From Escherichia coli (GTDB lineage: Bacteria; Pseudomonadota; Gammaproteobacteria; Enterobacterales; Enterobacteriaceae), in assembly GCF_003334815.1 (NCBI RefSeq), contig NZ_QOWO01000008.1: DNA of 64,000 nucleotides. One strand, written 5' to 3'. A model generated the notes under the pieces. That model ran no database searches, was not told the DNA's origin, and worked only from the letters and a program-made list of their open reading frames with translations. Below, in pieces: positions 1 through 38,431 of this stretch. The position numbers and the translations under genes were made by a program. Within the stretch, counting starts at the first letter, position 1. Every line of letters begins with the position of its first letter.

Positions 1-512
1 TAGGGTTCGACATCGGCACTGCCGGTTCTAAACATCGGGCGATTCTGGCTATCGATGATCTGAATACGTAGACCTTCCTGGACCAGATCGATTTTGAGAT
101 GGGGACGTAACGCCCGCAGTTTCGGATCGGACTCTATCAACTGGTCGAGATCACCCCGCAATTTCCGCAATCGACTTTGCTCCATGCGTTTTTTCAGCTC
201 TTCGATGTTCGGCTGCTTATTCACTTCCCCCTGGCTTTGGGTGTAATCATCACCACCGCCGGGAATTGGGCTTTCACTATTAGAAATGCGATCGCCGCCC
301 GTAACCGCAGTCGCCAGTGGAGTCCGGAAGTACTCCGCAATCTGAATCAGCTCTTTTGGGCTGGAGATGGAGATCAGCCACATCACCAGAAAAAAGGCCA
401 TCATCGCAGTCATAAAGTCGGCATAAGCAATCTTCCACGATCCATGTGCTGCCCCGTGGCTTTTGGCTTTGCGTCGTTTGACGACAATAATCGGATGCGC
501 TTGATTCTTCAT
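1..512 (-). CDS. motB: Flagellar stator protein MotB, N-terminal part only (3' end runs off the window)
   Basis: Minus-strand ATG at 512-510 overlaps the motA stop (ATGA junction) and translates [33 protein letters not shown]..., the MotB N-terminus; open to position 1. Confidence 0.9.
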
Positions 513-1396
513 GCTTCCTCGGTTGTCGTCTGTTGTTGCGGATTTTTCACCGCACGCACATGCTCTTCCAGTTCAATAAACGACGGACGTTCGCTGGAAT
601 AGAGCGTTTTGCGACCAAACTCAACGGCGATAGGCGGTGCGTAACCGTTCAGATTAGAAAGCAGAGTGACTTTGACGCACTGCATCATTTTGCTGGTTTC
701 GGCGCTTTTCTGACGTAAAACAGTCGCTAATGGGGAAATAAATCCGTAAGCCAATAAAATGCCGAGGAAAGTCCCCACCATCGCATGTGCGATAAGCGCA
801 CCCAGCTCGGCGGCAGGACGATCGGCTGAACCTAACGCGTGAACGACCCCCATTACAGCCGCAACAATACCAAACGCCGGAAGTGAGTCCCCGACCAGCG
901 CCAGACTGTTCGCCGGGACTTCTGCCTCGCTTTCGTGCGTCTCAATCTCTTCATCCATCAGAGCTTCGATTTCGAAGGTGTTCATGTGACCGCTGATAAT
1001 CAGGCGCAGATAATCGACGATAAAATCAAGCATGACGCTATCCGCGAGGATGCGTGGGTAGCTGGCGAAGATCTCGCTCTCACGGGGATTTTCAATATCA
1101 CGTTCCAGCGAAAACATCCCCATCTGCCGCGATTTCGCCATCAACCGATAAAGCAGAGCCAGCAGATCCATATACATTGCTTTGGTGTATTTGGAGCGAC
1201 GAAACAGCAACGGCAGCGCCTTCAGCGTGCCTTTAATCGCTTTGCCATTATTGCCGACGATAAACGACCCAATCCCTGCACCGGCAATAATCACCAGTTC
1301 AGCGGGTTGATAGAGTGCTCCAAGGCTTCCACCGGTCATCAAATAACCGCCGAAAACTGTACCGAGAACAACCAGGTAACCTAATAAGATAAGCAC
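509..1396 (-). CDS. motA: Flagellar stator protein MotA (proton channel)
   Basis: 295-aa ORF in track; sequence matches recalled MotA; 4-nt overlap with motB start. Confidence 0.96.
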
Positions 1397-1464
1397 GACA
1401 TCATCCTTCCACTGTTGACCATGACAGGATGTTCAGTCGTCAGGCGTTAACGCGCGATTGGGGC

Positions 1465-1498
1465 AAAAAAAAGCAGCGGTACGTCGTTACCGCTGCTG
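1465..1498 (-). terminator. Intrinsic terminator downstream of flhC
   Basis: Minus-strand hairpin gcagcggtaacgacgtaccgctgc followed by U8 (A8 on + strand at 1465-1472), just after the flhC stop. Confidence 0.7.
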
Positions 1499-1522
1499 GA
1501 ATGTTGCGCCTCACCGTATCAG

Positions 1523-2101
1523 TTAAACAGCCTGTACTCTCTGTTCATCCAGCAGTTGTGGGATAATATCGGCAGGATTCTGGGAAAGTTTACGTCTTTT
1601 TACTGCCCGGGATGGCGGTTGACATAAGCTGCAGGCAAAGCTGCCAACAGGCTGGTGAGCGTGGGTAATAAAATTGCCGCCGCAGCAGTTGCAGCTGGAA
1701 AGTTGCAGTAATCCACTTTCAACAAACCGCACCAATGTCCAGGCACGGGTTAATGCCAGCAGTGGTCCTTCTTCTGCTTGTGGGCACTGTTCAAGGTATA
1801 AACGGTAGGCTTTGATCACCGCATCGACGCCATTACACAAACCGGTTTTCAGTAAAAACTGCCATGCATTACAGAACATCGAAGCATGAACGTTTTGTTC
1901 CCAGGTCATAAACCAGTCGGTTGAGAATGGCAGCATGCCTTTCGGCGGTGGGCTTCCGCGCAGTTCTTTATAAAGTTTTATCAGGCGTCCGCGACTTAAC
2001 TGTGTTTCGCTTTCCAGCATCTGCAAACGAGCGCCCAGGGTGATCAATTCCATTGCCAGCTGAATATCCCGCGCTTCCTGAACAATGCTTTTTTCACTCA
2101 T
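1523..2101 (-). CDS. flhC: Flagellar master regulator subunit FlhC
   Basis: 192-aa ORF matching recalled FlhC ([27 protein letters not shown]...). Confidence 0.97.
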
Positions 2102-2103
2102 GA

Positions 2104-2454
2104 TCAGGCCCTTTTCTTGCGCAGCGCTTCTTCAGGCTGATTAACATCATTCAGCAAGCGTGTTGAGAGCATGATGCCGGTATGAATTTGCTGGAGATCG
2201 TCAATGCGGGAATCTTGCGTCAACTGAGTAATCGTCTGGTGGCTGTCAAAACGGAAGTGACAAACCAGTTGATTGGTTTCTGCCAGCTTAACCATTTGCG
2301 GAAGAGTCAGTGCCGCTAACGTTGTCGCCATTTCTTCATTTATGCCGAGACGAAACATAGCGGACGCTTTGTCCTGAACAATCAAACGCTGTGCAAGTAG
2401 TAAATATGACAAGTTGATGTCATAAATGTGTTTCAGCAACTCGGAGGTATGCAT
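2104..2454 (-). CDS. flhD: Flagellar master regulator subunit FlhD
   Basis: ORF track gives 119 aa from 2463 ([10 protein letters not shown]...); recalled K-12 FlhD begins [24 protein letters not shown], so start set at 2454; either start is possible. Confidence 0.93.
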
Positions 2455-2715
2455 TATTCCCACCCAGAATAACCAACTTTATTTTTATGCGGTTTCACCG
2501 CACCCCGTGATGTCGCCGGGAAGCCCCGGTAAAAAATAATTAGCATTAGAATAGTTGCGATAAGCTGCAATAAGCAGAACCACCTTTTTGGTTTAATATG
2601 TCCTTACAAATAGAAATGGGTCTTTACACTTATCTAAGATTTTTCCTAAATCGACGCAACTGTACTCGTCACTACACGCACATACAACGGAGGGGGGCTG
2701 CGATTTTCAATAATG

Positions 2716-2731
2716 TGTGATGCAGATCACA
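2716..2731. promoter_or_regulatory. CRP binding site of the flhDC promoter
   Basis: Perfect palindrome TGTGATGCAGATCACA (TGTGA-N6-TCACA) about 270 bp upstream of the flhD start, consistent with the class I CRP site of flhDC. Confidence 0.75.
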
Positions 2732-3233
2732 CAAAACACTCAATTACTTAACATAAATGTATAAGTCATACTTTTGTTTTGGGTGTATTTCAATCTGTTA
2801 AAAAGTTTTTCGCTACGCTAGCAAGCAAAAATGAAACAGGAATAATCGAAATGGGATGTTGCGCACAGTCAAAATAACTCACCGTAAATAATCATCTGCT
2901 ATAAATAATCACTTTCATGCAATACCAGATAAGCTATTTTTAAACAGACACTTACCGCACAACAAACTAATTAAATACAAAGAAAGGCAACAATCAACTT
3001 AATGTTAATGAAATGTTTTACATATATTAACCACTTGTTTAATGCGGAGAATCAGTACACTATTTTCTTATAATTACATTTGAAATTATATGATCACCGG
3101 GAGTGATTGATTAATTGTCTTTACTAATAATCAGACTAATATTTACCTGTTTGACCGAGTTGGGATTGCGTCGTTTCTCCATTAGGAGTAAAGCTTTAAT
3201 GTCACCTGAAGTTCACAGAATAAGGAACAGGTT

Positions 3234-3662
3234 ATGAGCTATAGCAATATTCTTGTCGCTGTTGCGGTTACACCGGAAAGTCAGCAACTGCTGGCAAAAG
3301 CGGTATCTATCGCCAGGCCAGTAAAGGGACACATCAGTTTAATTACTCTCGCTTCCGACCCGGAAATGTACAATCAATTAGCTGCGCCGATGCTTGAAGA
3401 TTTACGCAGCGTGATGCAGGAAGAAACGCAAAGCTTTCTTGATAAGTTAATTCAGGATGCGGGGTATCCCGTTGACAAGACGTTTATTGCCTACGGTGAG
3501 TTAAGCGAACATATTCTGGAAGTATGTCACAAGCATCATTTCGATTTGGTGATTTGCGGTAATCACAATCACAGTTTCTTTTCGCGAGCATCCTGCTCGG
3601 CGAAAAGAGTTATTGCCTCAAGTGAGGTCGATGTGCTGTTAGTTCCACTTACGGGAGATTAA
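3234..3662 (+). CDS. uspC: Universal stress protein C
   Basis: 142-aa ORF with AGGAACAGG Shine-Dalgarno; matches recalled UspC (YecG). Confidence 0.93.
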   Translation: MSYSNILVAVAVTPESQQLLAKAVSIARPVKGHISLITLASDPEMYNQLAAPMLEDLRSVMQEETQSFLDKLIQDAGYPVDKTFIAYGELSEHILEVCHKHHFDLVICGNHNHSFFSRASCSAKRVIASSEVDVLLVPLTGD

Positions 3663-3668
3663 CCGCTC

Positions 3669-7021
<3,353 letters not shown>

Positions 7022-7035
7022 CATACTCTCCTTAC

Positions 7036-8550
7036 TCAGGCAACAGCCTGGCTGACTTTAGGCATCGCAAGGCTCAGTGCCTGACGCTCATCTGCCTGCT
7101 CGTGTAACAATTCACCGGCGATTTCACCTTCCCGCATCACCACAATCCGGTCGGCAACGCCGAGGACTTCAGGTAAGTCGCTGGAGGCAAACAGCACCGC
7201 CACGCCCTGCGCCGCCAGCGCATAAATTACGTTATATATTTCGTGCTTAGCGCCAACATCAATGCCGCGCGTAGGTTCATCCAGCAAAATGACCTTCATC
7301 TCTTCCGATAACCAGCGGCCCAGAATGGCTTTTTGCTGATTTCCGCCTGAGAGATTCATGATCAGTTGCTCCGCGCCCGGCGTTTTGATGTTGAGCGAAC
7401 GAATGTGGTGATCGGCATTGTTTTCTTCCCAACCGTTGTTGATTACACAACCGCCGAGCACATGTTTACGTCTGGCACTGATGTTGATATTGTCGCGAAC
7501 GGAGTGCACGGGAATAATGCCTTCCGCTTTGCGATCTTCCGGGCAGAGCATCATGCCTGCGGCAATGGCGTGGCTCGGTTTACGAATATCGATCGGCTGT
7601 TGGTCGATATAAACCTGACCGGCGGTGATTTGCGTCCCGCCAAACATGCCTTTCATTAATTCGCTACGCCCCGCCCCTACCAGACCAAACAGCCCAACAA
7701 TTTCACCACTGCGAACCGCCAGACTTATTGGCGTACGCACGCCTGGTGCTTTCACAGCATCAAGACGTAGGCGCTCCTCGCCATAACTACGCGGTTGCCA
7801 GCCGTAGATATCGCCAATGTCGCGCCCGACCATCGCCTGCACCAGCGCGTCGTGGTCAACCTGCTGCATATCGGTAAAGGTTTTGACATAACGTCCATCT
7901 TTAAAGACAGTAATGGCATCGCTGAGGGCAAATATTTCTTCCATACGGTGAGAAACGTATAAGATTACCCGCCCCTCTTTTCGCAGTTCACGAATAACGC
8001 GGAAAAGATTGTCGATTTCACGGGCAGAGAGGGAGCTGGTTGGCTCATCAAAGGCGATAATTTTGGCGTTACGCGCCAGCGCTTTGGCGATTTCAACCAT
8101 CTGCCACTGACCAATGGAGAGATATTTCAGCGGCGTGTCCGGGTCAATATCCATACCAAGATGTTTAAGTTGTAAACCCGCCTCATAATTCAGCAATGAG
8201 CGATTCACAATGCCGCCTTTATGCGGCAGCTGGCCGAGATAGATGTTTTCCGCGACGGTCATTTCCGGCACGAGATGCAGTTCCTGGTAAATAATCGCCA
8301 CGCCCGCGTTAAGTGCTGCGGTCGTGTCGGAAAAGGACATTTCCTGCCCATTAATCACTACAGAACCCGTGGTTGGCGCATAGTTGCCGCTGAGGATTTT
8401 TAAGAGAGTTGATTTTCCTGCGCCATTTTCACCCATCAACGCATGAACCTGACCGGCATAGCAGTCAAAACTAATATCCGTCAGCGCCTTAACGCCGGGA
8501 AACGTTTTACCGATGCCGCGAAATGAGAGATACGGGGTAGACTGTTGCAT
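7036..8550 (-). CDS. araG: Arabinose ABC transporter ATP-binding protein (duplicated ABC domains)
   Basis: Track ORF 519 aa; recalled AraG (504 aa) begins [17 protein letters not shown] at ATG 8550; two Walker A motifs ([18 protein letters not shown]). Confidence 0.95.
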
Positions 8551-8619
8551 AACGTCTCCGTGAATCACTGGTCGTTCACACCCCCTCTGCATCATGCAGA
8601 GGGGAATTTTTCCGGCAAA

Positions 8620-9609
8620 TTACTTACCGCCTAAACCTTTTTTCTCCAGTTCTTCTTTAAAGTTGTCACGCGTGATCAGTACCACGTCGGTAACTTCGGT
8701 AAATTTTGGCGGTTCAACGTCTTTTGCTACCCAGTTGTAAAGCATTTCGCTGGATTTATAGCCATGTACGTCCGGGCTTGGCAGCAGGGAACCGTAGAAG
8801 CCGGTTGCCTGTGCTTTAGACAGTTCGCTCACCGCATCCACACCGTTAATGCCAATGCCGATGATATCGGCCGCTTTAAAGCCCTGACCTTCCGTCGCGC
8901 GTACGCCGCCCAGCACGGTGCTGTCGTTCATACCGACGATCAGCCAATGTTTAACTTCCGGATGTTGAACCAGCATTGAGTTGGCAGCGTCAAATGCCCC
9001 CGGGATGTCGTTAGATTTGGTAGGTACCTGATAAATTTGTTTTTCCGGGAATCCGGCCGCTTTCAGCGCATCCATAGATCCCGTAGTACGGCGGCGGGCG
9101 GTATCCAGTTCGTTGGCGGTAATCGCCATCACCGCGCTTTCTTTGACATCCCAGCCACGTTTCTGCATCTCTTTATACAGTTCCTGGCCCTGACGTTCGC
9201 CAATTTTAGTCGCCGCCATCATCACCAGCGGAACGGTATCCATTGGCTTACCTTTGGCGTTAACAAACTGGTCATCCACGGCAATGACTTTCATATCGTA
9301 GCCACGCGCTTTCGCGACGATGGCAGAGCCGAGTTTGGGGTCCGGAGTACAAATAACGAAACCTTTTGCGCCACTGGCAGCCAGGCTGTCGATCGCGTTC
9401 AATGTTTTTTCGCCATCCGGCACGGCAATCTTAATAACCTCAAACCCTAAATCCTTCCCGGCTTTATCGGCAAACTTCCATTCGGTCTGGAACCACGGCT
9501 CTTCCGGTTGCTTCACCAGAAAACCGAGCTTCAGGTTCTCCGCCATAGCGGATTGTGACATAACGGCTGCCAGACCAATGGCTGCCAGGGCTTTAGTAAA
9601 TTTGTGCAT
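8620..9609 (-). CDS. araF: Periplasmic L-arabinose-binding protein
   Basis: Track ORF 346 aa; recalled AraF (329 aa) begins MHKFTKALAAIGLAAVMSQSAMA (signal peptide) at ATG 9609. Confidence 0.95.
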   Translation of the reverse strand: MHKFTKALAAIGLAAVMSQSAMAENLKLGFLVKQPEEPWFQTEWKFADKAGKDLGFEVIKIAVPDGEKTLNAIDSLAASGAKGFVICTPDPKLGSAIVAKARGYDMKVIAVDDQFVNAKGKPMDTVPLVMMAATKIGERQGQELYKEMQKRGWDVKESAVMAITANELDTARRRTTGSMDALKAAGFPEKQIYQVPTKSNDIPGAFDAANSMLVQHPEVKHWLIVGMNDSTVLGGVRATEGQGFKAADIIGIGINGVDAVSELSKAQATGFYGSLLPSPDVHGYKSSEMLYNWVAKDVEPPKFTEVTDVVLITRDNFKEELEKKGLGGK

Positions 9610-9860
9610 GGTTCTCTCCAGCTTTAGTGTCGTTTTGTGTAGGGCAAAAACGAATGACATTCGTTAAATTAATCGGAAAACAAAGCATTACCTTTTAACT
9701 AAAAGATAAGTGACTGTGTTGACATAGTTTTAGCGAGAAATTAATTCTCCATAGGAGAGCAATATCACATCGCAGAATTACAGTGAGAACGTGCATAAAT
9801 TTAGCGGGAAAAGACATAAGGGAAAGCCAATTTGTCAGACAAATTGTCGAATGCACAGCA

Positions 9861-9880
9861 GATTAATCCATAAGATTAGC
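9861..9880 (+). promoter_or_regulatory. Candidate AraC binding half-site upstream of araFGH
   Basis: ATTAATCCATAAGATTAGCC closely resembles the araBAD araI1 element (TATCCATAAGATTAGC); about 250 bp upstream of araF in inverted orientation. Confidence 0.5.
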
Positions 9881-10405
9881 CTGGAAATCCTTGTTGTCTT
9901 TGGTACCCATGCGGGATGTCTTCTTTTTAACCAGTCAATAGGCCGCATTACCTGGCGTTGAGTTTTTGAAATGGTGTAATAACCGCAACTCAAAGATGTG
10001 GAAAATGCACGTCATTCATTTCGTCATTAATTATCACTGTGCTCATTAATTAACAGAACACGTATAATGAGAGCCATCTCGCAAAAATGAAAAAACGTTT
10101 TATAAAATCATCACTTCATCATGAATTCAAATTCATTGATTAATATCAACAAGATACAAAAAGCACTATCATTAAAATTCATTGCAGTTACATTGATTTC
10201 ATCAATGAAATGTAAAAATATATAAACTTGATGATTTAAGCATTTTCTTATACCCGTTCAGACGTTATTCTTATTTCAGATCATCGTCAGAATTGACTCC
10301 ACGATCACATTTCGGACCGGCAGAAAGGAATTATTCTGCAAACAGTAATTATGGTGTTTTGATTTATCTTGCACCTCTCCACTTCTGGATATAAGGATAT
10401 TAGGT

Positions 10406-10909
10406 ATGGCAACCGCTGGAATGCTTCTCAAACTCAACTCTCAAATGAACCGCGAGTTTTACGCATCCAATCTCTACCTTCACCTGAGTAACTGGTGTTC
10501 TGAACAGAGTCTGAACGGCACCGCCACTTTCCTTCGCGCCCAGGCACAGAGTAATGTGACCCAAATGATGCGCATGTTTAACTTTATGAAGAGTGTCGGC
10601 GCTACCCCCATCGTTAAAGCCATTGATGTTCCCGGTGAAAAACTGAACTCTCTGGAAGAACTGTTCCAAAAAACGATGGAAGAATACGAGCAACGTTCTA
10701 GTACGTTGGCACAGTTAGCCGATGAAGCGAAAGAACTGAATGATGATTCAACCGTCAATTTCCTGCGCGATCTGGAAAAAGAACAGCAGCATGATGGTCT
10801 GTTGCTGCAAACCATTCTTGATGAAGTGCGCAGTGCGAAACTTGCGGGTATGTGCCCTGTGCAGACCGACCAACATGTTCTGAATGTCGTGTCACACCAG
10901 CTGCATTGA
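10406..10909 (+). CDS. ftnB: Ferritin-like protein FtnB
   Basis: 167-aa ORF matching recalled FtnB (YecI). Confidence 0.94.
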
Positions 10910-10954
10910 TCATCATCGGCGCTAATGCATTGCGCCGATGAAGGTTTTGAGAAA

Positions 10955-10989
10955 CCGCTGCCTCATCTGTTTGAAGCAGCGGTTTTTTT
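10955..10989 (+). terminator. Intrinsic terminator after ftnB
   Basis: Hairpin CCGCTGCCTCATCTGTTTGAAGCAGCGG followed by T7. Confidence 0.7.
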
Positions 10990-11239
10990 AATGGGATTCA
11001 CCCTGTGGGGTAAACTTGAGTTCAATAAGCGCGATGGCTTTTTGGATTGCCCGCATGGTGACCGGGTCTGCGGCGGCGGGATGGTTAGTAAAGTCGATAT
11101 TCTTCAGCTGACTGGACATTTTTTCACGAACTTCAACGGGCGCGATTACATCGAGAACATCCAGAATTTGTTTGATAACCAACTGGCAAGCAACCACATC
11201 AGAAACCAATTCCTGATCGGCATTCAGCGGCTGGGACAT
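10988..11239 (-). CDS. yecJ: DUF2766 family protein YecJ
   Basis: 83-aa ORF matching recalled YecJ. Confidence 0.88.
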
Positions 11240-11324
11240 CGTAAACTCCTGATAGCATTTTGAAAGCCGTTATAGTAGCGACTTCACATCTTCAGCGATA
11301 GTCACATCCACCGTCATCAGGACA

Positions 11325-11352
11325 CAAAAAAACCTGCCGGAGCAGGTTTTTT
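11325..11352 (-). terminator. Bidirectional intrinsic terminator (azuC side)
   Basis: A8-CCTGC-CGGA-GCAGG-T6: GC stem flanked by A and T runs, functional in both orientations; abuts the azuC stop. Confidence 0.7.
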
Positions 11353-11353
11353 G

Positions 11354-11440
11354 TTATCGGAACATATTGCCTGGCGGTACGTCTTTGAACGTCTTGCAAT
11401 AGTTATTGAACATACTTTTCAGGATTTTGCGCAGTTTCAT
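11354..11440 (-). CDS. azuC: 28-aa small protein AzuC, encoded on the dual-function AzuCR (IsrB) RNA
   Basis: Hand-translated minus-strand ORF MKLRKILKSMFNNYCKTFKDVPPGNMFR-stop, matching recalled AzuC; below the 60-aa ORF track cutoff. Confidence 0.85.
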   Translation of the reverse strand: MKLRKILKSMFNNYCKTFKDVPPGNMFR

Positions 11441-11702
11441 CGCGGCACTCCGACCATTTGTTATACAGGTGTTATTGTCTTTGCGCTTATAATATGACAA
11501 CCATCACAAAAATCAATCTTTATGTGATACAAATCACATAAATACCCCTTTAATGTTATAAAAATGATAATCAAAAAACAGCCCCCCTATTTCTGACACC
11601 TACAGATGGCAAGAAATAGCGCCTGCCAGGCGTCTTTTCCGGCCATTGTCGCAGCACTGTAACGCGTAAAATAGTGCTTTCTCTTACTCTTCTGGCTGGA
11701 CC

Positions 11703-12026
11703 ATGAGACTTCTGATTCTGACTCTTTCATTAATAACGCTGGCGGGGTGTACGGTTACTCGCCAAGCCCATGTGAGCGAAGTTGACGCGGCAACAGGTAT
11801 TGTACGGTTAGTTTATGACCAGGCTTTTTTGCAGCATGCCCATACCGATCGTTATGTCAGTCGCGGGATCGCCGATCGCGCATGCCAGCAGGAAGGCTAT
11901 ACCCACGCGGTCCCCTTTGGTCAGCCAGTAGGCAACTGTAGCCTTTTTGCGGGTTCCTTATGTTTGAATACGGAATTCACTTTGTCATATCAGTGCCATC
12001 ATTCCGCCTTCCCTGTCTTTCTCTAA
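11703..12026 (+). CDS. yecR: Lipoprotein YecR
   Basis: 107-aa ORF with lipobox LAGC; matches recalled YecR. Confidence 0.9.
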   Translation: MRLLILTLSLITLAGCTVTRQAHVSEVDAATGIVRLVYDQAFLQHAHTDRYVSRGIADRACQQEGYTHAVPFGQPVGNCSLFAGSLCLNTEFTLSYQCHHSAFPVFL

Positions 12027-12196
12027 ATATTTTAATCAGCGAGGGGATCTTCGCTGATTAAAGAAATAGCGGTAATGCGTTTTATTCCCATTCGTATTTT
12101 TAATAATTGAAGTTTATATTTTACCTTTTGCAAATAATAAAATAACAAATTATAGTGACGCCACAGCAACAAATATAACCTTTGTGGAGCACTATC

Positions 12197-12694
12197 ATGC
12201 TGAAACCAGAAATGATTGAAAAACTTAATGAGCAGATGAACCTGGAACTGTACTCTTCACTGCTTTATCAGCAAATGAGCGCCTGGTGCAGCTATCATAC
12301 CTTCGAAGGTGCTGCCGCGTTCCTGCGCCGTCACGCCCAGGAAGAGATGACGCATATGCAGCGTCTGTTTGATTACCTGACTGATACCGGCAATTTACCG
12401 CGTATTAATACCGTTGAATCTCCGTTTGCTGAATATTCCTCACTTGATGAGTTATTCCAGGAAACCTATAAACACGAACAATTAATCACCCAGAAAATTA
12501 ACGAACTGGCTCATGCTGCAATGACCAATCAGGACTACCCAACATTTAATTTCCTGCAATGGTATGTTTCTGAGCAGCATGAAGAAGAGAAACTGTTCAA
12601 ATCGATTATTGATAAATTAAGCCTGGCAGGCAAAAGCGGCGAAGGTCTGTATTTTATCGACAAAGAACTCTCTACCCTCGACACACAAAACTAA
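12197..12694 (+). CDS. ftnA: Ferritin FtnA
   Basis: Track ORF starts at 12182 (MWSTIM...); recalled FtnA (165 aa) begins [19 protein letters not shown] at ATG 12197. Confidence 0.95.
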
Positions 12695-12701
12695 TGCTCT
12701 C

Positions 12702-12730
12702 CGGCGGCAGGTTTACTGCCGCCGTTTCAA
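12702..12730 (+). terminator. Intrinsic terminator between convergent ftnA and yecH
   Basis: Hairpin CGGCGGCAG-GTTTA-CTGCCGCCG followed by TTTCAAAT. Confidence 0.6.
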
Positions 12731-12731
12731 A

Positions 12732-12971
12732 TCAGTGACGGCAAATCTTACTCTGATCGGTCGAAAAACCGTCTTTCGAAGGTATAAATTTGCCTTTTGC
12801 TGCCAGAAACGCTACCAGCTCTCCCGCTGTCATCCCTTCTGCCGAGCAGGTGTGAAAACGTGCCTGTTCACCAAAACGCGCTTTAATCGCAGCTTCCAGA
12901 CTGGCATGCGTATATTGCTCGCCTGATTCAATCATCATATTTAACACTTCATGACCGTGAATAGAGTCCAT
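12732..12971 (-). CDS. yecH: DUF2492 family protein YecH
   Basis: 79-aa ORF matching recalled YecH. Confidence 0.88.
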   Translation of the reverse strand: MDSIHGHEVLNMMIESGEQYTHASLEAAIKARFGEQARFHTCSAEGMTAGELVAFLAAKGKFIPSKDGFSTDQSKICRH

Positions 12972-13161
12972 CGTCCCTCCTCAAAAAAAGCCTAGCGTAG
13001 CGATTGCCGCTTATGAAGACTTTGCGCCAGCGCAGGACTGAATGCTTTTTATTGTACATTTATATTTACACCATATGTAACGTCGGTTTGACGAAGCAGC
13101 CGTTATGCCTTAACCTGCGCCGCAGATATCACTCATAAAGATCGTCAGGACAGAAGAAAGC

Positions 13162-14373
13162 GTGAAAAACAGAACCCTGGGAAGTGTTTTTATCGTGGCG
13201 GGAACCACAATTGGCGCAGGCATGCTGGCAATGCCGCTGGCTGCGGCCGGTGTTGGTTTTAGCGTTACGTTAATCTTGTTGATTGGGCTTTGGGCGTTGA
13301 TGTGCTACACGGCGCTATTACTGCTGGAGGTGTACCAGCATGTTCCGGCAGATACCGGTCTGGGCACGCTGGCAAAACGCTATCTGGGACGCTACGGTCA
13401 ATGGCTGACGGGCTTCAGTATGATGTTCTTAATGTATGCTCTGACTGCGGCATACATCAGCGGTGCCGGTGAATTGTTGGCCTCCAGCATCAGCGACTGG
13501 ACAGGTATTTCTATGTCGGCAACCGCTGGCGTGCTGTTGTTCACTTTTGTTGCCGGTGGCGTGGTTTGTGTCGGAACTTCACTGGTCGATTTATTTAACC
13601 GTTTTCTGTTCAGCGCCAAGATTATTTTTCTGGTGGTAATGCTGGTACTACTGCTGCCGCATATTCACAAAGTGAATCTTTTAACCCTGCCGTTGCAACA
13701 GGGGCTGGCTCTGTCTGCAATCCCGGTGATTTTTACGTCGTTTGGTTTTCACGGTAGCGTGCCGAGTATTGTCAGCTATATGGATGGCAACATTCGTAAG
13801 CTACGCTGGGTGTTTATAATCGGTAGTGCGATCCCCCTGGTGGCATATATTTTCTGGCAGGTGGCGACGCTTGGCAGCATTGATTCAACAACCTTTATGG
13901 GATTGCTGGCTAATCATGCTGGATTAAACGGGCTGTTACAGGCGTTACGCGAAATGGTGGCCTCTCCGCATGTTGAGCTGGCAGTGCATTTATTTGCTGA
14001 TTTAGCCCTCGCCACGTCATTTCTCGGCGTTGCGTTAGGCTTATTTGATTATCTGGCTGATTTATTTCAGCGTTCAAATACCGTTGGTGGACGGTTGCAA
14101 ACTGGTGCAATTACGTTTCTGCCGCCGTTGGCGTTTGCACTGTTTTATCCACGAGGATTTGTGATGGCGCTGGGTTACGCCGGTGTGGCGCTGGCGGTAC
14201 TGGCATTGATTATCCCTTCGCTGTTGACCTGGCAAAGCAGAAAGCACAATCCTCAGGCGGGTTACCGGGTCAAAGGTGGTCGTCCGGCGCTGGTGGTGGT
14301 GTTTCTCTGTGGTATTGCTGTGATTGGCGTGCAATTTTTGATTGCGGCAGGGTTGTTACCAGAAGTGGGGTGA
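13162..14373 (+). CDS. tyrP: Tyrosine-specific permease
   Basis: 403-aa polytopic ORF with GTG start; matches recalled TyrP. Confidence 0.95.
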
Positions 14374-14434
14374 TCAGATAGCCTCAAATTCCTTATTGGG
14401 TGCCAGAATTAACGCTGACACCCAATTTGGCCTC

Positions 14435-15100
14435 TTAATGCAGGCAGCACTGCTTAAATTTCTTACCACTACCGCACGGGCAAGGATCGTTACGCCCCGG
14501 TTTCTCTTCTGCTTTGATCGGTTGCTGAACAGCTTTTTCCTGCGGATGCGCCATCCAGTACGCATGTAGATCAAGCGCCGCCAGTCGAATGGCATCTACG
14601 CTCTCTTCAAACGCTTCTGGCGACATCTTTTCTACCCGCTCGAAGTTTTCCTCAGTACCGTGCAGCGCAATCGCCTCCAGCGCTGGTTTTAACGAATCGG
14701 GCAACGTTGACCAGTCAGAAAGTGCCACGCCCCGCATATAGCCAAAGCACCACTCCTCAACAATCGTCAGCTCGCTGCCATCAACTTCTCGCAAGCCGAA
14801 TAACGGCTCAAACTGCTCCGGGAATTCGTTCAGACGCTCTGCGGTATCGGCCATATGTTGAAAAGCCAGATTCATAAAGCGCGTCATCTCTTTCTCTGAC
14901 GCCCAGCGCGGCACATAGTCAGCCCCACCCCACACGGCAACCAGCCACTGTTCCGGTTCAATCTCTTGCGGAGAACTCAACACCGCCGTCAATAAACCGT
15001 CCAGCTCCGCCACATCAAGGATGGCGTGGTCAGTGTTGTATTTGGTCAGAATATCGTCCAGCCATTCCAACTCACTTTCGTTTAACGGTCCCGTTTTCAT
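14435..15100 (-). CDS. yecA: UPF0149/SEC-C motif protein YecA
   Basis: 221-aa ORF ending in the SecA-like metal-binding motif [13 protein letters not shown]; matches recalled YecA. Confidence 0.93.
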
Positions 15101-15226
15101 ACGCTTTTCCTTGTGGATCTCAACTCGCCAGCACCTATCTTACATGCCGGTCCGTATCAGAGATACTTTTTGAGTGGCTTTGCTGGTGATTAAAAATTAA
15201 GGAGGGTGTAACGACAAGTTGCAGGC

Positions 15227-15295: not shown

Positions 15296-15382
15296 TGGTA
15301 CCCGGAGCGGGACTTGAACCCGCACAGCGCGAACGCCGAGGGATTTTAAATCCCTTGTGTCTACCGATTCCACCATCCGGGC
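15296..15382 (-). tRNA. leuZ: tRNA-Leu (anticodon UAA)
   Basis: Reverse complement reads GCCCGGATGGTGGAATCGGTAGACACAAGGGATTTAAAATCCC...GGGTACCA, 87 nt with encoded CCA. Confidence 0.95.
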
Positions 15383-15394
15383 TCGGGAAGAAAG

Positions 15395-15468
15395 TGGAGG
15401 CGCGTTCCGGAGTCGAACCGGACTAGACGGATTTGCAATCCGCTACATAACCGCTTTGTTAACGCGCC
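15395..15468 (-). tRNA. cysT: tRNA-Cys (anticodon GCA)
   Basis: Reverse complement reads GGCGCGTTAACAAAGCGGTTATGTAGCGGATTGCAAATCCG...GCGCCTCCA, 74 nt. Confidence 0.95.
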
Positions 15469-15522
15469 AAATTCTTCAGGCCTTTCAGCCAGACATCCGC
15501 TTGACGCCGATGTCTTTTAAAC

Positions 15523-15598
<76 letters not shown>

Positions 15599-25589: not shown

Positions 25590-27302
25590 TTAACCCTGCA
25601 GCAGAGACAGAACCTGCTGCGGTACCTGGTTAGCTTTTGCCAGCACGGAGTTACCTGCCTGCTGAATAATCTGCGCTTTCGACATGTTGGACACTTCGGT
25701 CGCATAGTCGGCGTCCTGAATACGGGACTGCGCTTCGGACAGGTTGGTAGTGGTGTTGTTCAGGTTGGTGACTGCGGAATCCAGACGGTTCTGCACGGCA
25801 CCCAGGGAAGAACGGAATTTGTCTACGGATGCGATAGCATCGTCCAGCGCTTTCAGCGGATCCGTGGTCGCTTCAGATTTACCTGTAGCTTCAGTGGTCA
25901 GAGAGCCGTCAGCCGCTTTATACAGAGCCGCGCCGTCATCATCCAGAATATTGCCGTTAGCAAATTCGTGATAAGTTTCTGTGACAGTCTTGTTGGCCGC
26001 AGTCGTCAGTTCACCCTCAGCACCAATATTTACGGTCGCTCCACCTGTAGTAGCAGTTACTGCACCATCAGCGGCAACGTCATAAGACTGTGCGCCGTTA
26101 GCTACGGTATAAGCCTGACCGGTTAACGCAGTGTTCATATCTTCGGCGGATACCGTCGCGCCCTTAATATCCACATTGTTGCTAACCTGGGTGAAGTCAA
26201 CGGTCATGCCGCTGCCGAAGGTAATCTTCGCATCAACTGCATCATGACCATTCGCACCGTTGAAAATACCGTCCAACGTTGCCGCGGCTGGGCCGCCGGC
26301 CTGGTTTTTCGTCAGGTTACCGTCAGCACCAATGTATAAAGCATCGCCATTAGTATCCGTCAGGGTACCATCGCTGGCAATTTTAACTTCCTGAGCGCTA
26401 CCACCGATGGAGATCTGAGCCGTGTTATCGCCGTTTGCTGCATAGGCTTTCAGAACATCAGCAACTTTAGTTGAGCCCGCAGTACCATCACCATTAGTAA
26501 GTGCGGTTGCGTCAAATGAATAAGACTTGCTGGTTGCGTTGTAGGTATATGCAGTAGAAGCCGCTACGCCTAACCCATTGTTTGTGCCAGCATAACCGCT
26601 AATAGTGCTGCCGCCACTAACGCTAGCCAGCACATCGGTAGCTGTTGCTGCATTAAAGGTAGTAACAGTAGATTTAGTCCAGGTGCTATTGCCACTGACA
26701 ACTGCACTTTGGGAGAAGCCCGCAGCGGTCAGATCTGCTTCAGTGGCTTTTGCATTATCAACAGCGCCTTTACCGTTGACGTTGAAGCTGGTCAGCTTCA
26801 GTGTAGAAGAGTCGATTTTTTTCAGGTCAATCGTGATGGTTTCACCATCATTTGCGCCCACCTGAATTTTCATTGAACCGTCTTTGGACAACACATTCAC
26901 GCCATTGAACTGGGTCTGACCAGATACGCGGTCAATTTCATCAAGACGAGATTTGATTTCGTCCTGGATGGAGTCCAGGTCAGAATCGGAGTTAGTACCG
27001 GTAGTGGCCTGAACCGTCAGTTCACGGATACGCTGTAAGTTGTTGTTGATTTCGGACAGCGCGCCTTCGGTGGTCTGCGCAACGGAAATACCGTCGTTGG
27101 CGTTACGTGCAGCCTGAGTCAGGCCTTTAATGTTAGAAGTAAAACGGTTAGCAATCGCCTGACCCGCGGCGTCATCCTTCGCGCTGTTAATACGCAAGCC
27201 AGAAGACAGACGCTCGATAGAACTCGACAGCGCAGACTGGTTCTTGTTGATATTATTTTGAGTGATCAGCGAGAGGCTGTTGGTATTAATGACTTGTGCC
27301 AT
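25590..27302 (-). CDS. fliC: Flagellin (H-antigen); 570 aa with conserved D0/D1 termini and a central variable domain unlike the K-12 allele
   Basis: N-terminus MAQVINTNSLSLITQNNINKNQSALSSSIERLSSGLRINSAKDDAAGQAIANRF and C-terminus ...SKAQIIQQAGNSVLAKANQVPQQVLSLLQG are canonical; the central ~300 aa is Thr/Ala/Gly/Asp-rich. Confidence 0.96.
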   Translation of the reverse strand: MAQVINTNSLSLITQNNINKNQSALSSSIERLSSGLRINSAKDDAAGQAIANRFTSNIKGLTQAARNANDGISVAQTTEGALSEINNNLQRIRELTVQATTGTNSDSDLDSIQDEIKSRLDEIDRVSGQTQFNGVNVLSKDGSMKIQVGANDGETITIDLKKIDSSTLKLTSFNVNGKGAVDNAKATEADLTAAGFSQSAVVSGNSTWTKSTVTTFNAATATDVLASVSGGSTISGYAGTNNGLGVAASTAYTYNATSKSYSFDATALTNGDGTAGSTKVADVLKAYAANGDNTAQISIGGSAQEVKIASDGTLTDTNGDALYIGADGNLTKNQAGGPAAATLDGIFNGANGHDAVDAKITFGSGMTVDFTQVSNNVDIKGATVSAEDMNTALTGQAYTVANGAQSYDVAADGAVTATTGGATVNIGAEGELTTAANKTVTETYHEFANGNILDDDGAALYKAADGSLTTEATGKSEATTDPLKALDDAIASVDKFRSSLGAVQNRLDSAVTNLNNTTTNLSEAQSRIQDADYATEVSNMSKAQIIQQAGNSVLAKANQVPQQVLSLLQG

Positions 27303-33408: not shown

Positions 33409-33516
33409 TCCCTCATTCCCGCTGTGGCCAACAGCGGGAATATCGTTGCCTCTGTACCACATAGATTTTACCCGCCCCCTCTCCTATTCTTTTCAGTGTG
33501 CTCTCAGGAGGTTGCT

Positions 33517-34185
33517 ATGTGTGGACGCTTTGCCCAATCCCAAACGCGTGAAGATTACCTTGCGCTTCTCGCGGAAGATATTGAACGCGATATTCCCTAT
33601 GATCCCGAACCCATTGGCAGATACAACGTCGCGCCGGGAACCAAAGTTCTTCTGCTCAGTGAACGTGATGAACACCTTCATCTGGATCCGGTTTTCTGGG
33701 GATATGCTCCCGGATGGTGGGATAAACCGCCGCTGATTAACGCCCGCGTAGAAACTGCGGCCACCAGTCGTATGTTTAAACCGCTCTGGCAACATGGTCG
33801 GGCAATCTGTTTTGCCGATGGCTGGTTTGAGTGGAAAAAAGAAGGCGACAAAAAACAGCCTTATTTTATCTATCGTGCTGACGGACAACCTGTTTTTATG
33901 GCCGCGATAGGTAGCACACCGTTTGAGCGCGGTGACGAAGCCGAAGGATTTTTAATTGTCACTGCAGCAGCAGACCAGGGTCTGGTAGATATTCATGACC
34001 GCCGCCCGCTGGTACTGTCGCCAGAAGCTGCGCGGGAATGGATGCGGCAAGAGATTGGCGGTAAAGAAGCATCAGAAATTGCTACCAACGGCTGTGTGCC
34101 AGCAAACCAGTTCACCTGGCACCCGGTATCGCGCGCGGTAGGTAATGTCAAAAACCAGGGCGCGGAGTTAATTCAACCTGTTTGA
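33517..34185 (+). CDS. yedK: SRAP (SOS response-associated peptidase) abasic-site processing protein YedK
   Basis: Track ORF starts at 33424; true start ATG 33517 follows AGGAGG and gives MCGRFAQSQ... (catalytic Cys2); 222 aa matching recalled YedK. Confidence 0.93.
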   Translation: MCGRFAQSQTREDYLALLAEDIERDIPYDPEPIGRYNVAPGTKVLLLSERDEHLHLDPVFWGYAPGWWDKPPLINARVETAATSRMFKPLWQHGRAICFADGWFEWKKEGDKKQPYFIYRADGQPVFMAAIGSTPFERGDEAEGFLIVTAAADQGLVDIHDRRPLVLSPEAAREWMRQEIGGKEASEIATNGCVPANQFTWHPVSRAVGNVKNQGAELIQPV

Positions 34186-34577
34186 TAAGCCAGGAGACTA
34201 TTGATCAATAATACTGCGTCATAAGAAATCTCTATTAGACAAAGTAGACGCTCCTTCCACATGCGCCACAAGAAACCTCTATTCCAGTGACACAATTACG
34301 CCTGATTATTTCCCTAGCCCGGAATATGAATAAAAACATCAACAAAGATTAAATTATTCAAACGTTACTGTTGCGTCTGCGGTCGTAACAACATCCGACG
34401 TGGTGATGTGTATCAAATGAGGCCTCTGATGATCAGAGGGTTTATCGCGTATACGGATCGTGGATGGCAGAAAACTTTCAGAATCAGGTTTCCATTTTAA
34501 ACCAGAAATTGAGTGAGTTTGCCCCATCCATGCCCCACGCGGTGAGATCGGATGTAATTAACAACAGGTTACAAAAC

Positions 34578-34892
34578 CTACACCTGCATGCTCATCACTT
34601 CCTGATACGCCGCCACCAGCTTATTACGCACCTGAATCCCCATTTGCATAGAAACTGAGGCTTTTTGCATATCGGTCATCACATCGTTTAACGCCACGCC
34701 GGGTTCACCGAGAGTGAATTTTTCTGCCTGCGTGCGGGCAGCTGTTTGTGTATCACTAATGCGATCGAGCGCGGCGTGCAGCTGCCCGGCAAAACTAATG
34801 GTCGGTTGCGGCAGTGATTCCTGCGCACGCGCACTCATCGCCGTAGCCTGTAACTGGCTGATAACCCCTTCAATCCCCTGTATCGCTGACAT
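34578..34892 (-). CDS. fliE: Flagellar hook-basal body protein FliE
   Basis: Track ORF 114 aa; recalled FliE (104 aa) begins [24 protein letters not shown] at ATG 34892. Confidence 0.95.
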
Positions 34893-35106
34893 TCTCGTCT
34901 CCCGGATAATTTCTGGTAGCAAAGCCTACCAGTAAGTCAATAAGACAAAGGCGCTAAATAACAACAAAAAAACGGGTTTATTGGCGGATAGAAAAAAACG
35001 AAAGCACAAATAATGGGAGCGTCAATTTTTCGAGTTTGCTGACCCGGGAGTGAGTCTTGTTCCACTTTGCCAATAACGCCGTCCATAATCAGCCACGAGG
35101 TGCGCG

Positions 35107-38431
<3,325 letters not shown>

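Follow-up and report, generated by a model that had tools for sequence, protein, structure and literature searches.

The 392 bp that separate yedK from fliE in this Escherichia coli strain very probably constitute the most reduced of the common forms of an old prophage remnant, the one represented in K-12 by intG and PR-G, and not an unoccupied site. Three segments make up the spacer: from 34414 to 34597 a fossil attL-type junction, from 34202 to 34413 some 210 bp of non-native DNA, and from 34186 to 34201 about 16 nt that are probably native; all positions refer to the window, the whole 64-kb stretch of DNA that was analysed. As a structural polymorphism at a cryptic prophage remnant that is already known, this compact layout is ordinary and has been sequenced before. 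It occurs in about one fifth of complete E. coli genomes, its integrase fossil is already annotated in K-12, and it matters little beyond bookkeeping. What changes is the reading of the locus: the site is not empty, the live att site is the last 20 bp of fliE and not the repeats in the spacer, and two gene-sized indels set the window apart from K-12.

Anatomy of the yedK-fliE interval

The genes yedK and fliE are convergent, and the yedK stop codon (TGA) occupies 34183-34185. Both the list of open reading frames and the sequence itself place no intact gene in the 392 bp up to the fliE stop at 34578, which bears out the roughly 390 bp of non-coding DNA described by the initial annotation. The parts of the interval, with the evidence for each, are as follows.

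33517-34185, plus strand: yedK (SRAP / SOS-response-associated peptidase), 222 aa; list of open reading frames and RefSeq annotation of identical DNA in strain CP53
34186-34201, no strand: 16 nt, TAAGCCAGGAGACTAT, probably native intergenic DNA; the same 16 nt precede a second att core in emrE-class strains
34202-34214, no strand: block A, 13 nt between the native stretch and R1; common to K-12 by alignment, without a phage match
34215-34236, plus strand: R1, repeat copy 1 (TGCGTCATAAGAAATCTCTATT); repeat search, pattern search and shuffles
34237-34261, no strand: inter-repeat segment of 25 nt, with the yedL cassette point at 34244/34245; BLAST blocks against K-12 and junction sequences
34262-34283, plus strand: R2, repeat copy 2 (TGCGCCACAAGAAACCTCTATT); repeat and pattern search
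34284-34316, no strand: right part of block B, with the yedN/espR4 insertion point; BLAST blocks and junction sequences
34317-34413, no strand: block C, common to K-12, 5′ of the recognisable integrase fragment; alignments
34414-34561, plus strand: int', pseudogene fragment, ortholog of K-12 intG / cryptic prophage PR-G; phage Int homology and multiple alignment
34562-34577, no strand: phage-side arm, CAACAGGTTACAAAAC, the P' side of the fossil attL; identical in phage attP, absent 3′ of fliE in Salmonella
34578-34597, no strand: 20-bp att core, CTACACCTGCATGCTCATCA, equal to the fliE stop and last 5 to 6 codons; flanking direct repeats, prophage junctions and phage attP
34578-34892, minus strand: fliE (flagellar hook-basal body protein), 104 aa; list of open reading frames and RefSeq annotation

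The 16 nt beside yedK would be the only stretch of the spacer native to the yedK-fliE intergenic DNA, and it is after 34201, where these shared 16 nt end, that the window departs from emrE-class strains. The G+C content of the spacer is 41.8%, between 33.7% for the yedN islet found in other strains and 52-54% for yedK and fliE. No promoter or terminator was predicted in the spacer, no Rfam family matched 34000-35150 at E<=1, and NCBIfam searches with the small spacer ORFs and the int fragment returned no match.

The 3′ region of fliE (window 34390-34590, minus strand) folds at -60.7 kcal/mol and is more stable than its shuffles (z = -2.6), with a hairpin that spans the stop codon and the phage arm. 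Judging from this predicted fold, the phage-derived DNA at the fliE 3′ end may contribute to fliE termination. The window does not come from strain CP53, the source of the RefSeq annotation: the two are identical over 33900-34900 but 96.8-98.7% identical elsewhere, with the flagellin region of the window unmatched (window 1-15222 and 25848-26803 differ). Beyond the tRNA genes leuZ-cysT-glyW (15296-15598) the window is K-12-like (yecA, tyrP, ara-sized ORFs), and CP53 carries an integrase-bearing island instead.

The integrase fragment and its attachment core

In the phage search, the right part of the spacer matched the integrase of Escherichia phage IdasGreatGrand (PP925829). Window 34425-34559 corresponds to its last 45 aa, of which 40 (89%) are identical to Int residues 387-431 and which include the catalytic-Tyr region, and at the DNA level identity is 87% across 34414-34597 (184 nt), through the int stop. 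The phage protein (434 aa) carries the PF12167 Arm-DNA-bind_2 (1e-25) and PF00589 Phage_integrase (2e-17) domains, and homology to this full-length integrase identifies int' as a remnant of a tyrosine (lambda-type) integrase. It does not encode a functional enzyme, as it lacks the full catalytic domain and an open reading frame: about 45 codons are recognisable, with a 1-nt frameshift near 34423, and a tblastn search with the phage protein detected no homology upstream of them, including in block C (34317-34413).

The same DNA is annotated in K-12. MG1655 intG (2012502-2012780) aligns to window 34381-34658 at 96.4%, so that block C from 34381 onward lies inside DNA called intG there, and RefSeq flags the gene (b1936) as "cryptic prophage PR-G". 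An 11-bp deletion at 34561|34562, common to K-12 in the multiple alignment, removes the integrase stop codon. This loss accounts for a 64-codon ORF (34464-34658) extending antisense into fliE, and with it for the overlap of b1936 and fliE in MG1655. Pseudogene status matches the annotation in K-12 and, for other strains, that of PGAP, which marks an "integrase" fragment inside the same compact spacer. The initial annotation held that the K-12 remnant genes are absent here; this is right for yedL and yedN, and intG is retained.

The att core of this integrase family is the last 20 bp of fliE (34578-34597). In IdasGreatGrand the int stop is followed by CAACAGGTTACAAAAC-CTACACCTGCATGGACATCA, and the last 20 nt of the CTACACCTGCATGGACATCA stretch are the reverse complement of the fliE stop and final codons. 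The phage sequence CAACAGGTTACAAAAC-CTACACCTGCATG(GA)CATCA matches window 34562-34597, which places the core next to int, and the window core is identical to phage attP except for a GCT/GGA variant at a Ser codon. That codon, the third from the end of fliE (34591-34593, Ser of ...M-S-M-Q-V), is AGC in the window, K-12, a yedL-only strain (L004) and a further retrieved locus (L005), and TCC in emrE-class and intact-prophage genomes, as in phage attP. On comparison of these sequences, the AGC/TCC swap, which falls into two codon families, marks phage-supplied fliE ends.

Two copies of the core flank larger remnants in other strains. The emrE-class strains, named for the DLP12-like genes that they carry at this locus, have a second 20-mer core 16 nt after the yedK stop (at 9028-9047 in locus L090, where the 16 nt and the core together span 9012-9047, and at 6067-6086 in L006), and the DLP12-like remnant is thus flanked by direct core repeats. 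Nissle 1917 and the type strain are among the 456 genomes in which the yedK-side core junction is intact. In addition, six genomes carry a full-length integrase abutting fliE. In one of them, UTAK-1, an intact P22-like prophage with tailspike, Arc, xis and int separates fliE from an older integrase fragment; its int is 98.4% identical to that of IdasGreatGrand and abuts fliE. The far junction reads old int', arm, core and then the phage P-arm TATGACCATG. Both prophage junctions of UTAK-1 carry the core, and the site is in use by intact prophages.

Tandem TGCCCCA motifs occur within int' at 34520-34526 and 34531-34537, and the P arms of IdasGreatGrand and the UTAK-1 prophage have them again at a depth of about 110 nt. 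Lying on either side of the core, these motifs are candidates for arm-type integrase binding sites.

In the window, no significant second att core was found in 34186-34413, and the far boundary of the old prophage therefore cannot be placed in this allele. A 14/19 match at 34286-34304 was considered as a second core and rejected, being no better than shuffles. When a synthetic virgin junction, built from the yedK end, the 16 nt and the core running into fliE, was compared with 5,426 complete E. coli genomes, none matched it over its full length. Together with the integrase fragment and the phage arm in the spacer, this speaks against the earlier description of the spacer as an ancestral empty site.

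The direct repeat and the two K-12 inserts

The stop-to-stop distance between yedK and fliE in MG1655 is 2,210 bp, and RefSeq places yedL, the yedN pseudogene (b4495) and intG within it. The initial annotation stated that K-12 lacks the compact junction, which is correct, and named these genes rightly with an interval of about 3 kb, which should be about 2.2 kb. BLAST of the window against the K-12 locus (L001) yielded three collinear blocks. Window 33428-34244 equals L001 3302-4118 and reaches 59 nt beyond yedK in K-12; window 34245-34311 equals L001 4722-4788, a 67-bp block sitting between K-12 yedL and yedN; and window 34308-35100 is 97.7% identical to K-12 DNA, from 269 nt before the fliE stop onward.

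K-12 thus differs from the window by two separate inserts split by the retained 67-bp block, and the single horizontally acquired islet proposed earlier gives way to two independent ones. The first is a 603-bp yedL cassette at 34244|34245, made up of 51 nt of upstream sequence, the yedL CDS and a 72-nt terminator-bearing tail. The second is a yedN/espR4 islet of about 1.2 kb, comprising the gene and about 80 nt upstream, with a fuzzy junction between 34308 and 34309-34316; the BLAST blocks overlap here, at 34308-34311. The yedL-only strain L004 has the same yedN-empty junction as the window. The junction sequences of both inserts revealed no target duplication, terminal inverted repeats or mobility gene. 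The K-12 layout yedK-yedL-yedN-intG-fliE is not that of the window, and the junction is split in all K-12 derivatives, so the strain is indeed non-K-12 at this locus, as had been suggested, with yedL and yedN absent.

The imperfect direct repeat noticed in the initial annotation is real and longer than first described. The repeat search defines a 22-nt unit, TGCGYCAYAAGAAAYCTCTATT, at 34215-34236 and 34262-34283, with a 47-nt spacing and 19/22 matches, a score reached by none of 2,000 shuffles of the spacer. R1 and R2 differ by three T/C transitions, and the pattern search found only these two copies in the window. K-12 keeps both, R1 at 59 nt upstream of the yedL start and R2 downstream of yedL, where they bracket the yedL cassette only, with yedN and intG outside. 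The cassette junction lies between the repeats, at a distance of 8 nt from R1 and 17 nt from R2, and the yedN islet junction lies 25 nt to the right of R2. The expectation that K-12 island junctions fall at or between the repeat copies accordingly holds for yedL and fails for yedN.

The repeats had also been proposed as an attachment-site scar. As the attachment site of the resident integrase they were rejected, since the core is the last 20 bp of fliE; the 22-nt repeat has no similarity to this core, and no copy of it was found outside the locus in the rest of the window or among 100 retrieved loci. Judged by eye rather than computed, it bears no convincing resemblance to dif or integron attC sites, and the repeat region folds no better than shuffles (z = -0.07). 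A single-copy allele, with yedN and without yedL, exists in 389 genomes. The repeats may have mediated the deletion behind this allele; that they are the ends of a small yedL cassette is less likely.

Allele frequencies, origin and relatives of the compact form

Among the 5,426 complete E. coli genomes, the compact window-type junction with both insertion points empty was found in 1,015, the yedL cassette in 1,287 and the yedN/espR4 islet in 1,531. An emrE-int' junction (the DLP12-like remnant emrE-ybcL-ybcM, with or without nmpC) is present in 2,597, and the single repeat copy (yedN present, yedL absent) accounts for 389. All four combinations of yedL and yedN presence and absence exist. There are two different yedL-less junctions, the window type and the single-repeat type, and at least one of them must have arisen by deletion. 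In the flanking 1 kb, divergence among strains with the compact allele reaches about 4.5%, which indicates that the allele is old. Structural class does not track flank similarity: yedK of the window is 1.0% from that of an emrE-class strain versus 4.0% from K-12, and int' diverges by up to 12.8% between alleles. This lack of correlation points to old alleles whose history recombination has scrambled.

Several further features of the locus were observed in other strains. Between E. coli strains (loci L001-L091), divergence is 1-6% for yedK and 0.2-3.4% for fliE-fliF, so the yedK side of the interval appears unusually divergent or recombinogenic. An O157-like contig (L097, 9012-13185) carries a unit of about 1.95 kb in tandem, yedL-espR-int' followed by a partial yedL-espR-int', with two integrase fragments and two LRR effector genes between yedK and fliE, and probes for yedL and yedN each hit two places in O157:H7 genomes. 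In the yedL-only strain 2017-02-2CC (L101, 1447-1503), the 3′ tail of the cassette contains an 18-aa ORF that PGAP annotates as a "cyclic lactone autoinducer peptide". This call is probably a spurious small ORF, and the ORF is not present in the window.

Outside Escherichia, the DNA after the fliE stop in Salmonella is unrelated and the arm part is absent; the Salmonella yedF-fliE interval holds a different gene and no yedK, and has been described as variable (PMC5122947). A YedK search of the genome collection gave no Escherichia outgroup and, among other Enterobacteriaceae, mostly non-syntenic paralogs. The sole syntenic match was Franconibacter pulveris (L082, 7001-10260), with the order yedF, yedK, a 393-aa acyltransferase, an integrase fragment and fliE. 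An int' beside fliE in this species indicates that the end of fliE is targeted by this integrase family outside Escherichia too. The left 235 bp of the spacer had no match in 50,697 phage records or to the P arms of IdasGreatGrand and UTAK-1, and it is their position that points to a prophage origin. A literature search on intG, yedN, yedL and a fliE attB found no account of phage integration at fliE.

We propose that the last 20 bp of fliE are the integration target of temperate phages whose tyrosine integrase is of the IdasGreatGrand type, and that these phages bring their own copy of the fliE codons, so that the gene stays intact. An ancient integration would have left an integrase gene beside fliE, and later deletions would have removed nearly all of the prophage except for some 150 bp at the end of int, the arm of 16 nt and the core (34414-34597). 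In other strains, the non-native DNA to the left (34202-34413) is host to two accessory units, the 603-bp yedL acetyltransferase cassette between the repeats and the ~1.2-kb LRR type III effector gene yedN/espR4. With neither unit, the window represents the cargo-free allele. Both this order of events and the native status of the ~16 bp beside yedK are what we infer from the arrangement of the alleles.

How the window came to lack the two units is less certain, and we lean only modestly toward yedL and yedN having been prophage cargo lost here by deletion over their later insertion elsewhere. Prophage decay usually leaves accessory genes beside an integrase tail, as Franconibacter illustrates; the two yedL-less junctions call for at least one deletion; and neither insert bears an insertion signature. 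On the other side, each indel tightly fits a single gene unit, which random deletion would not obviously predict. It is accordingly possible, if less probable, that the window-type sequence (R1, 25 nt, R2, block B, block C) is the older one, that the integrase fossil predates both units, and that yedL and yedN were inserted later elsewhere. The tidiness of each K-12 insert, the existence of all four combinations, the age of the compact allele and the foreign G+C of the yedN islet (33.7%) would all suit such a history. It would, however, require two independent insertions at most ~65 nt apart, by elements without target duplication, terminal inverted repeats or a mobility gene, and the single-repeat allele would still need a separate deletion, while cargo by a decayed integrase is already what prophage decay usually leaves.

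In a reading that we consider unlikely, a recombinase acting in trans would move a non-autonomous yedL element of roughly 650 bp, composed of one repeat and the 628 nt that lie between the two, and the 22-nt repeats would serve as its att-like sites; the single-repeat allele would then be the true empty site and the window an internally deleted element that kept both ends. The repeats do bracket yedL in K-12, a single-copy allele does exist in 389 genomes, and its one copy resembles R1 on its left side and R2 on its right (both as in K-12 and the window), as a single crossover would leave it; the O157-type R2, however, already has T at position 5, so this hybrid reading is not required. Moreover, the repeat is confined to this locus and has no convincing dif/attC resemblance by eye or special secondary structure, the cassette with its repeats was never seen elsewhere, the extra O157-type copy being a local tandem duplication, and a plasmid-borne yedL homolog lies among IS elements without the 22-nt repeats. 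As for a truly unoccupied ancestral target in which the integrase-like stretch is a chance resemblance, nothing beyond the lack of intact genes in the spacer speaks for it, and its probability is negligible: it is refuted by the homology to phage int-attP (40/45 residues and 87% DNA identity over 184 nt), by orthology to annotated intG and by live prophage junctions at the same core.

With at least five common alleles, the locus offers a simple structural marker, and it illustrates how phage copies can periodically replace the final codons of a flagellar gene. Of its relatives, K-12 intG (b1936) is orthologous DNA with the same 11-bp loss of the int stop and the same core in fliE; the window differs from that locus in having neither the 603-bp yedL cassette nor the ~1.2-kb yedN pseudogene. 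The DLP12-type remnant (emrE-ybcL-ybcM-nmpC) also sits between yedK and fliE and has the int' tail and core in common with the window from 34442 onward, but it has both 20-bp cores and several phage-borne genes, whereas the window has one core and none of these genes. IdasGreatGrand and the UTAK-1 prophage have the integrase C-terminus, the 16-nt arm and the 20-bp core in common with the window; the IdasGreatGrand integrase is complete, whereas the window retains its last ~45 codons, frameshifted, and no other phage gene. Phage 21 and e14 integrate into the 3′ end of icd and bring a replacement copy of that end. The fliE system resembles these icd phages in that the target gene stays intact and the phage supplies the terminal codons, and differs in the length of the duplication, which is ~20 bp at fliE versus ~165 bp at icd.
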